From positions 3,904,001 through 3,968,000 of the forward strand of contig CM000154.2 in assembly GCA_000004695.1 (NCBI GenBank): 64,000 nucleotides of DNA, in the 5' to 3' direction. The notes beneath the pieces are model-generated. The model was given only the letters and a program-made list of their open reading frames with translations. It searched no databases and had not been told where the DNA came from. Numbering within the stretch: the first letter of the stretch is position 1; every line of letters begins with the position of its first letter. Below, piece by piece: positions 15,901-16,285 of this stretch. A program made the position numbers and the translations under genes. Source of the stretch: Dictyostelium discoideum. Lineage: Eukaryota.

Positions 15901-16285
15901 CTTTGTGGTAATCAGAAGAATTGTTTTCGAAGCATACAAATGGAAATTCTCACACAATTTAGTGACGAATAACAAATATAAACAAACATCAAAGAAGATG
16001 AATACTGCTTTGGGAAAAGTCCCCGGATCCCAGGATAGAAAGTATCACCCGTAATGGTAATGTCTCTGTTTGCTGGTACCTTGGCAAAGAAGAAATTGTC
16101 CAGTGTCTTGTGCACCCAATCTCCGAGTCTTTAGTGCTGCATTCAAAGTCAATGATCGAAGTAATAGGTTAATGCAATTAGGAATTATATTTTTTCTGGT
16201 AGCAATTACAAATTGTATTCTATTAGAAATTAATTTCCGTACAGAATGGGGCTTACTCTCACGATTACCACCACCAAACCCCCCC
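15901..16285 (+). ncRNA. Nuclear RNase P RNA candidate (~370-385 nt)
   Basis: A GC-richer island in AT-rich DNA. CR-I-like 'GGGAAAAGUCCCCGG' at 16012-16028. CR-V-like 'ACAGAAUGGGGCUUAC' at 16241-16256 (compare bacterial ACAGAAcCCGGCUUA). Together they form a P4 helix AAGUCCCC / GGGG-C-UU with the canonical bulged U. The 5' 'cuuugugguaauc' (15901-15913) can pair with the 3' 'gauuaccaccaccaaa' (16262-16277) as a P1 helix. A T-run lies downstream. Overlapping ORFs 15912..16115(-) and 16070..16297(+) are spurious. Confidence 0.7.

Follow-up and report, generated by a model that had tools for sequence, protein, structure and literature searches.

A probable RNase MRP RNA gene of Dictyostelium discoideum, previously read as RNase P RNA, and its conservation in two other dictyostelids

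Introduction

The RNA of nuclear RNase P (Rfam family RF00009, which includes human H1/RPPH1 and yeast RPR1) and that of RNase MRP (RF00030, which includes human RMRP, yeast NME1 and S. pombe mrp1) belong to the same Rfam clan, CL00002. They have in common a catalytic core made up of helices P1-P4 and the conserved blocks CR-I, CR-IV and CR-V, and the two enzymes share most of their protein partners (PMC3001073). Because CR-I, CR-V and P4 are common to both RNAs, these elements alone cannot separate the two paralogues. Domain 2 of the MRP RNA turns the enzyme toward other substrates, pre-rRNA and some mRNAs (PMC3001073), and a GARAR pentaloop is a defining, MRP-specific feature of the P8 hairpin (PMC1796607, section 7).

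An MRP RNA of D. discoideum appears under DDB0187328 in the supplementary table of PMC1796607, where it is credited to Piccinelli et al. 2005. It is described as having an additional P3c helix and as lacking P6 (PMC1796607, section 7). The P3 arm is the docking site of the Rpp20/Rpp25 (Pop6/Pop7) heterodimer (references in PMC3001073), and Dictyostelium encodes Rpp20 and Rpp25 along with Pop1, Pop4/Rpp29, Pop5, Rpp30 and Rpp40 (PMC1636426; PMC3001073). Many Dictyostelium ncRNA genes carry an upstream element, DUSE, which has the consensus [AT]CCCA[AT]AA (PMC3188802) and lies approximately 60-63 nt upstream of the start (PMC3188802; PMC7919456).

Here, we describe a locus within a 64-kb stretch of D. 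discoideum AX4 DNA (hereafter, the window). A sequence-only reading of the window correctly recognized a P/MRP-type ribozyme RNA gene in this locus but named the wrong paralogue, nuclear RNase P RNA. We conclude, with a probability of approximately 0.95, that the locus at about 15905-16271 on the forward strand encodes the RNA subunit of D. discoideum nuclear RNase MRP and not the RNase P RNA. Like the members of RF00030, it has P1-P4, CR-I (GAAAGUCCCCGGA in the family), CR-V (GGGGCUUA.UCUC), a P8 with a GARAR loop, P9, eP19, and the GCcAAGAaG and CuGAGC motifs of the distal arm. It differs from them in its P3 arm, which forms a three-way junction, in its long, AT-rich distal arm and eP19, and in an inexact CR-IV. 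The demonstrated parts of the MRP reading are the family assignment, the helices and motifs, and the conservation and synteny of the locus.

Results

A full-length match to the RNase MRP RNA family

When both strands of the 64-kb window were scanned with Rfam 15, RF00030 (RNase_MRP) matched positions 15906-16269 of the forward strand with a score of 86.6 bits, compared to a gathering threshold of 50. The match spans the full model (positions 1-266 of 266), with E = 1.3e-22 over the window and E = 1.7e-24 when the region 15700-16500 was scanned. With an E-value this low over the entire window, chance does not account for the combination of features. No second Rfam match was found on either strand of the window, even at E <= 0.1. 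Measured from the 5' strand of P1 to its 3' strand, the gene (15905..16271, forward strand) is 367 nt long, compared to approximately 265 nt for human MRP RNA. The gene lies in an island (15901-16285) that had been described as GC-rich, and the island is real: its GC content is 36.5%, compared to 11% at 15500-15900, 9% at 16300-16409 and 22% window-wide. ARAGORN detected no tRNA genes in the window, and the RNase P RNA gene is likewise absent from it.

Synteny and conservation in D. citrinum and D. firmibasis

An ORF 2.5 kb from the RNA gene (18759-19118, reverse strand) is identical to AX4 DDB_G0290299 (XP_635786.1), the mitochondrial ribosomal protein bL32. We reached the orthologous loci in other species by fetching the DNA beside their bL32m orthologues. 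Two D. citrinum assemblies and D. firmibasis share the same gene order, namely bL32m, a gene of approximately 380-400 aa, a gene of approximately 210 aa and the RNA gene. RF00030 matched in the expected place and on the expected strand in each, with scores of 87.3 and 86.1 bits in the D. citrinum assemblies and 92.6 bits in D. firmibasis. Over the RNA body, identity to AX4 is 92-93% in D. citrinum and 88.5% in D. firmibasis, compared to 50-82% in the flanks, and it reaches 98-100% between species in the segment containing CR-I, P8 and P9. The differences cluster in the loops and linker of P3, at the distal-arm tip, and in the distal portion of eP19. A syntenic locus with a nearly identical core and far more diverged flanks indicates purifying selection.

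This pattern bears on whether the locus might be a non-functional or diverged extra copy, either a pseudogene or an MRP-like paralogue, with the working MRP gene elsewhere in the genome. MRP-like extra copies occur in other eukaryotes (PMC3001073), and our search for RF00030 in this genome was confined to the 64-kb window. However, every core element is intact, and synteny in three species together with the contrast between a conserved core and much more diverged flanks speaks against such a copy. We therefore consider an extra copy very improbable; on the sequence evidence, the locus is a real and functional-looking ncRNA gene.

Outside these species, no Rfam match was found at the bL32m loci of Polysphondylium violaceum, Heterostelium album, Cavenderia fasciculata or Acytostelium subglobosum. 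The absence of an MRP gene from these loci is explained by loss of synteny in the four genera. Searching metagenome contigs with the CR-I 14-mer AAAAGTCCCCGGAT returned 120 loci that were chance matches, none of which had CR-V downstream in a plausible context.

The neighbor on the upstream side of the RNA gene differs between species. In AX4, this side contains a surface-protein-like ORF with TPSTTPS repeats and a truncated near-duplicate of its C-terminal half (12362-13432 and 14565-15095). In D. citrinum and D. firmibasis, it contains a 149-aa MAPEG-like gene (14393-14941 in our locus sequence L001 and 16344-16898 in L003). On the other side are two long ORFs (17390-18556, forward strand; 19457-23173, reverse strand) with much poly-Q and poly-N. 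The protein collection has an exact match to the bL32m ORF but none to these two. The annotated gene models at these positions are probably not identical to the raw ORFs, owing for instance to introns or another start.

Helices and conserved blocks

Domain 1 contains helices P1, P2 and P3. The 5' strand of P1 (15905..15916, forward strand; GUGGUAAUC.GA) pairs with 16259-16271, and all 11 pairs are standard. Nine of these form a contiguous helix between GUGGUAAUC (15905-13) and GAUUACCAC (16263-71), and two more join 15915-16 to 16259-60. P1 thus closes a 367-nt molecule (15905-16271), and it contains one compensatory change, from U-A to C-G at 15912/16264 in D. citrinum (L001). A P1 closure had been proposed from the sequence alone, and the 9-bp helix bears it out. 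The outer extension that was drawn with it, 15901-04 paired to 16272-77, does not make a clean helix, and the 3' partner of this extension (16272-77) is deleted in D. citrinum. In the Rfam alignment, the 5' strand of P2 (15919..15924, forward strand; AAUUGU) pairs with GCAAUU at 16174-16179, giving six standard pairs, of which a U.G pair becomes C-G in D. firmibasis.

The P3 domain (15927..16013, forward strand) begins with P3a, seven standard pairs between 15927-33 and 16007-13. P3a encloses a hairpin at 15946-15970 and another at 15987-16000, the extra "P3c", joined by a variable linker, so that the enlarged P3 arm forms a three-way junction. The P3 stems are invariant between species, and the loops and linker vary. 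With two hairpins inside P3a, the locus also resembles the published MRP RNA of the same organism, with its additional P3c helix.

The two blocks that first marked this locus as a P/MRP-type gene are both present. The CR-I block, GGGAAAAGUCCCCGG, occupies 16012..16026 on the forward strand and is invariant in all seven sequences compared; its start had been placed correctly and its end, given as 16028, two bases too far. The CR-V block, ACAGAAUGGGGCUUAC, lies at exactly the position that had been assigned to it (16241..16256, forward strand) and is invariant except for one loop base in D. firmibasis. The Rfam alignment shows an almost complete agreement of the two blocks with the MRP consensus GGGGAAAGUCCCCGGA...GCAGAGAGUGC. 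CR-I holds the 5' strand of P4, AAG[U]CCCC (16017-16024), and CR-V holds its 3' strand, GGGGCUU (16248-16254). P4 pairs these strands as previously suggested, in seven standard pairs with U16020 bulged, and is invariant in the seven sequences.

CR-IV has the consensus AnAGUnA and is expected 0-3 nt before the 3' strand of P2 (PMC1796607). A CR-IV-like block, AUAGGUUA (16164..16171, forward strand), ends 2 nt before this strand. It is an inexact match, with one extra G relative to the consensus, and its U is C in other strains. The eP19 hairpin (16181..16238, forward strand) is taken from the Rfam alignment, has 20 listed pairs and shows G.U to A-U changes between strains.

Domain 2 and the choice between RNase MRP and RNase P

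Directly after CR-I is the P8 hairpin (16034..16046, forward strand), in which a 4-bp GAUA/UAUC stem carries a GAAAG pentaloop of the GARAR type (16038-16042). P8 is invariant in the seven sequences from the three species. Over the stretch that follows CR-I, almost every letter agrees with the Rfam MRP consensus GGGGAAAGUCCCCGGACaCuuggGCAGAGAGUGCc. The P9 hairpin (16047..16058, forward strand; ACC CGUAAU GGU) is taken from the Rfam alignment and is also invariant. The remainder of domain 2 is a distal arm (16059..16163, forward strand) that is P10/P12-like. Rfam places the conserved GCcAAGAaG and CuGAGC motifs of the family at 16083-92 and 16123-29 of this arm, where the window reads GGCAAAGAAG and CCGAGUC, respectively. 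The detailed fold of the arm is uncertain; the rest of it aligns with low posterior probability and several non-canonical pairs, and the hairpin at its tip is longer in D. firmibasis.

The alternative proposed by the sequence-only reading, in which CR-I, CR-V and P4 form the core of the tRNA 5'-processing ribozyme and the locus is the nuclear RNase P RNA gene, was evaluated against these features and against the Rfam models. The models for RNase P and RNase MRP are members of a single clan, CL00002, for which the scan displays only the best of the overlapping matches. We bracketed the suppressed match by repeating the scan of 15700-16500 with cut-offs of E <= 10 and E <= 0.001 and with the gathering threshold. 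One lower-scoring match from the same clan was left out at E <= 10, and none was left out at E <= 0.001 or at the gathering thresholds in this region. Any RNase P-family match here would thus have 0.001 < E <= 10 and fall below its gathering score, the bit score of RNaseP_nuc being bracketed only.

An RNase P RNA would account for CR-I, CR-V, the bulged U of P4, and P1-P3, all of which are present though common to P and MRP RNAs, and for the weak same-clan match at E <= 10. On the other hand, the covariance models choose RF00030, at 86.6 bits and E 1.7e-24, with no RNase P family at the gathering threshold or at E <= 0.001. Unlike the RNAs of RF00009, the locus has an MRP-type domain 2: its P8 carries the GARAR loop, which is specific to MRP RNA (PMC1796607), and what follows CR-I aligns with the consensus of MRP domain 2. 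In addition, a separate MRP RNA is reported from D. discoideum, and it has the same P3c peculiarity as the locus (PMC1796607). Taken together, these results make it extremely improbable that the locus is the RNase P RNA gene, and RNase MRP RNA is the identity that we retain.

There is next to no prospect that the island instead encodes a protein through one of its two listed ORFs of at least 60 aa (67 aa, GTG start, 15912-16115, reverse strand; 75 aa, TTG start, 16070-16297, forward strand), which the sequence-only reading had rightly set aside and which we also rejected. Neither starts with ATG or has a Pfam match at E <= 1, the two overlap on opposite strands, and comparison between species places 1-nt and 5-nt indels inside both.

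Fold and covariation

In the structure that we assigned by hand, all 81 pairs, including P4, are standard in AX4. Across species, 98.6% of cells in these 81 pairs (the P4 pseudoknot included) are standard pairs. Compensatory pairs numbered 1 of 81 in the three closely related species, not above shuffles, and a few G.U pairs change to G-C or A-U. The three species are too similar for covariation to either support or contradict the fold.

Thermodynamic predictions recovered part of this structure. The minimum free energy of 15905-16271 has a z-score of -0.41 relative to dinucleotide shuffles. The centroid fold recovers P1, P3a, both P3 hairpins and eP19, and RNAalifold recovers P1, P3 and P4 and misfolds the rest, including P2, P8 and eP19. 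Given this z-score and the misfolding by RNAalifold, thermodynamic screens would miss this gene.

Flanking signals

A DUSE-like motif, UCCCAAUG (15858..15865, forward strand), is a candidate promoter element. The sequence-only reading had pointed to the heptamer "tcccaat", which is present at 15858-15864, but the motif matches only 6 of the 8 positions of [AT]CCCA[AT]AA and its spacing is non-canonical: UCCCAAUG is 41-47 nt upstream of the first base of P1 (15905), whereas the usual DUSE distance is counted from the transcription start. The heptamer is not unusual in the window, with 17 copies compared to 12.8 expected. Exact DUSE sequences occur 15 times in the window, none of them upstream of or near the RNA gene. 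The CCCAA core and the GCYUUAAA that follows it are kept in all three species within an otherwise pure T/A spacer; the species are closely related, so this conservation is weak evidence. In its C-rich CCCA motif upstream, the near-pure A/T spacer and a core kept in three group-4 species, the locus resembles the DUSE-dependent ncRNA genes of Dictyostelia (snRNAs and Class I RNAs). It departs from them in matching only 6/8 of the consensus and in lying approximately 41-47 nt, rather than approximately 60-63 nt, from the presumed RNA start. A role for the DUSE-like motif as a promoter element is plausible but unproven.

On the 3' side (16272..16321, forward strand), P1 is followed by a C-rich tract, CACCAAACCCCCCCUCCCCCC (16272-16292), by UGUAAAUAAA (16293-16302), and by a run of 22 A (16300-16321). 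D. citrinum and D. firmibasis retain the C-rich tract and TGTAAATAAA. The first downstream T-run of at least 4 is at 16357, 86 nt beyond P1, and hence there is no obvious Pol III terminator beside the end of the RNA. In this respect the locus differs from the vertebrate RMRP genes, which are Pol III type-3 genes. The stretch from 16272 to 16321 may serve as a 3'-end formation signal.

One interpretation of these flanks, which we regard as unlikely, is that the MRP RNA gene is expressed in an atypical way, through Pol II transcription and a route of 3'-end formation that is linked to polyadenylation or is otherwise new for an Amoebozoan P/MRP RNA. This interpretation is based on a degenerate DUSE-like element at approximately -45 rather than approximately -63, and on the C-rich tract, AAUAAA and A-run that replace a T-run.

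Discussion

Our analysis identifies the locus as an MRP RNA gene, and its family suggests how the product may work; catalysis, protein partners and substrates are inferred from the family. P1, P2 and P3, together with the long-range P4 formed by CR-I and CR-V around its bulged U, would form the catalytic core of a P/MRP RNA. P1-P4 with CR-I, CR-IV and CR-V would constitute the active site that is shared with RNase P, and P4 would, by analogy, position catalytic metal ions, as in RNase P and in yeast and human MRP. Domain 2, with its GARAR-bearing P8, P9 and long distal arm, would take the place of the specificity domain with which RNase P binds tRNA. The RNA would be expected to assemble with proteins of the Pop1, Pop4/Rpp29, Pop5, Rpp30, Rpp20/Rpp25 and Rpp40 types. 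The resulting ribonucleoprotein would be a site-specific endonuclease that works mainly in the processing of pre-rRNA (ITS1).

Agreement in organism, in family and in the P3c helix suggests that the locus is the published DDB0187328. Since the MRP RNA is catalogued in the supplement of PMC1796607, the gene would be one that was already known, and the sequence-only reading spotted it correctly and misnamed it. Elements common to P and MRP RNAs led to the RNase P label, and the paralogues are told apart by the GARAR loop of P8 and by comparison of covariance models. If the locus is the MRP RNA gene, labelling it as RNase P would misname both genes, and the RNase P RNA gene must be elsewhere in the genome. 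The spacing of the DUSE-like motif and the missing T-run terminator pose a small question about how Dictyostelia transcribe this gene. The main value of the analysis is the correction itself: the locus would supply D. discoideum with the RNA of an essential rRNA-processing ribozyme, and not with its RNase P RNA.
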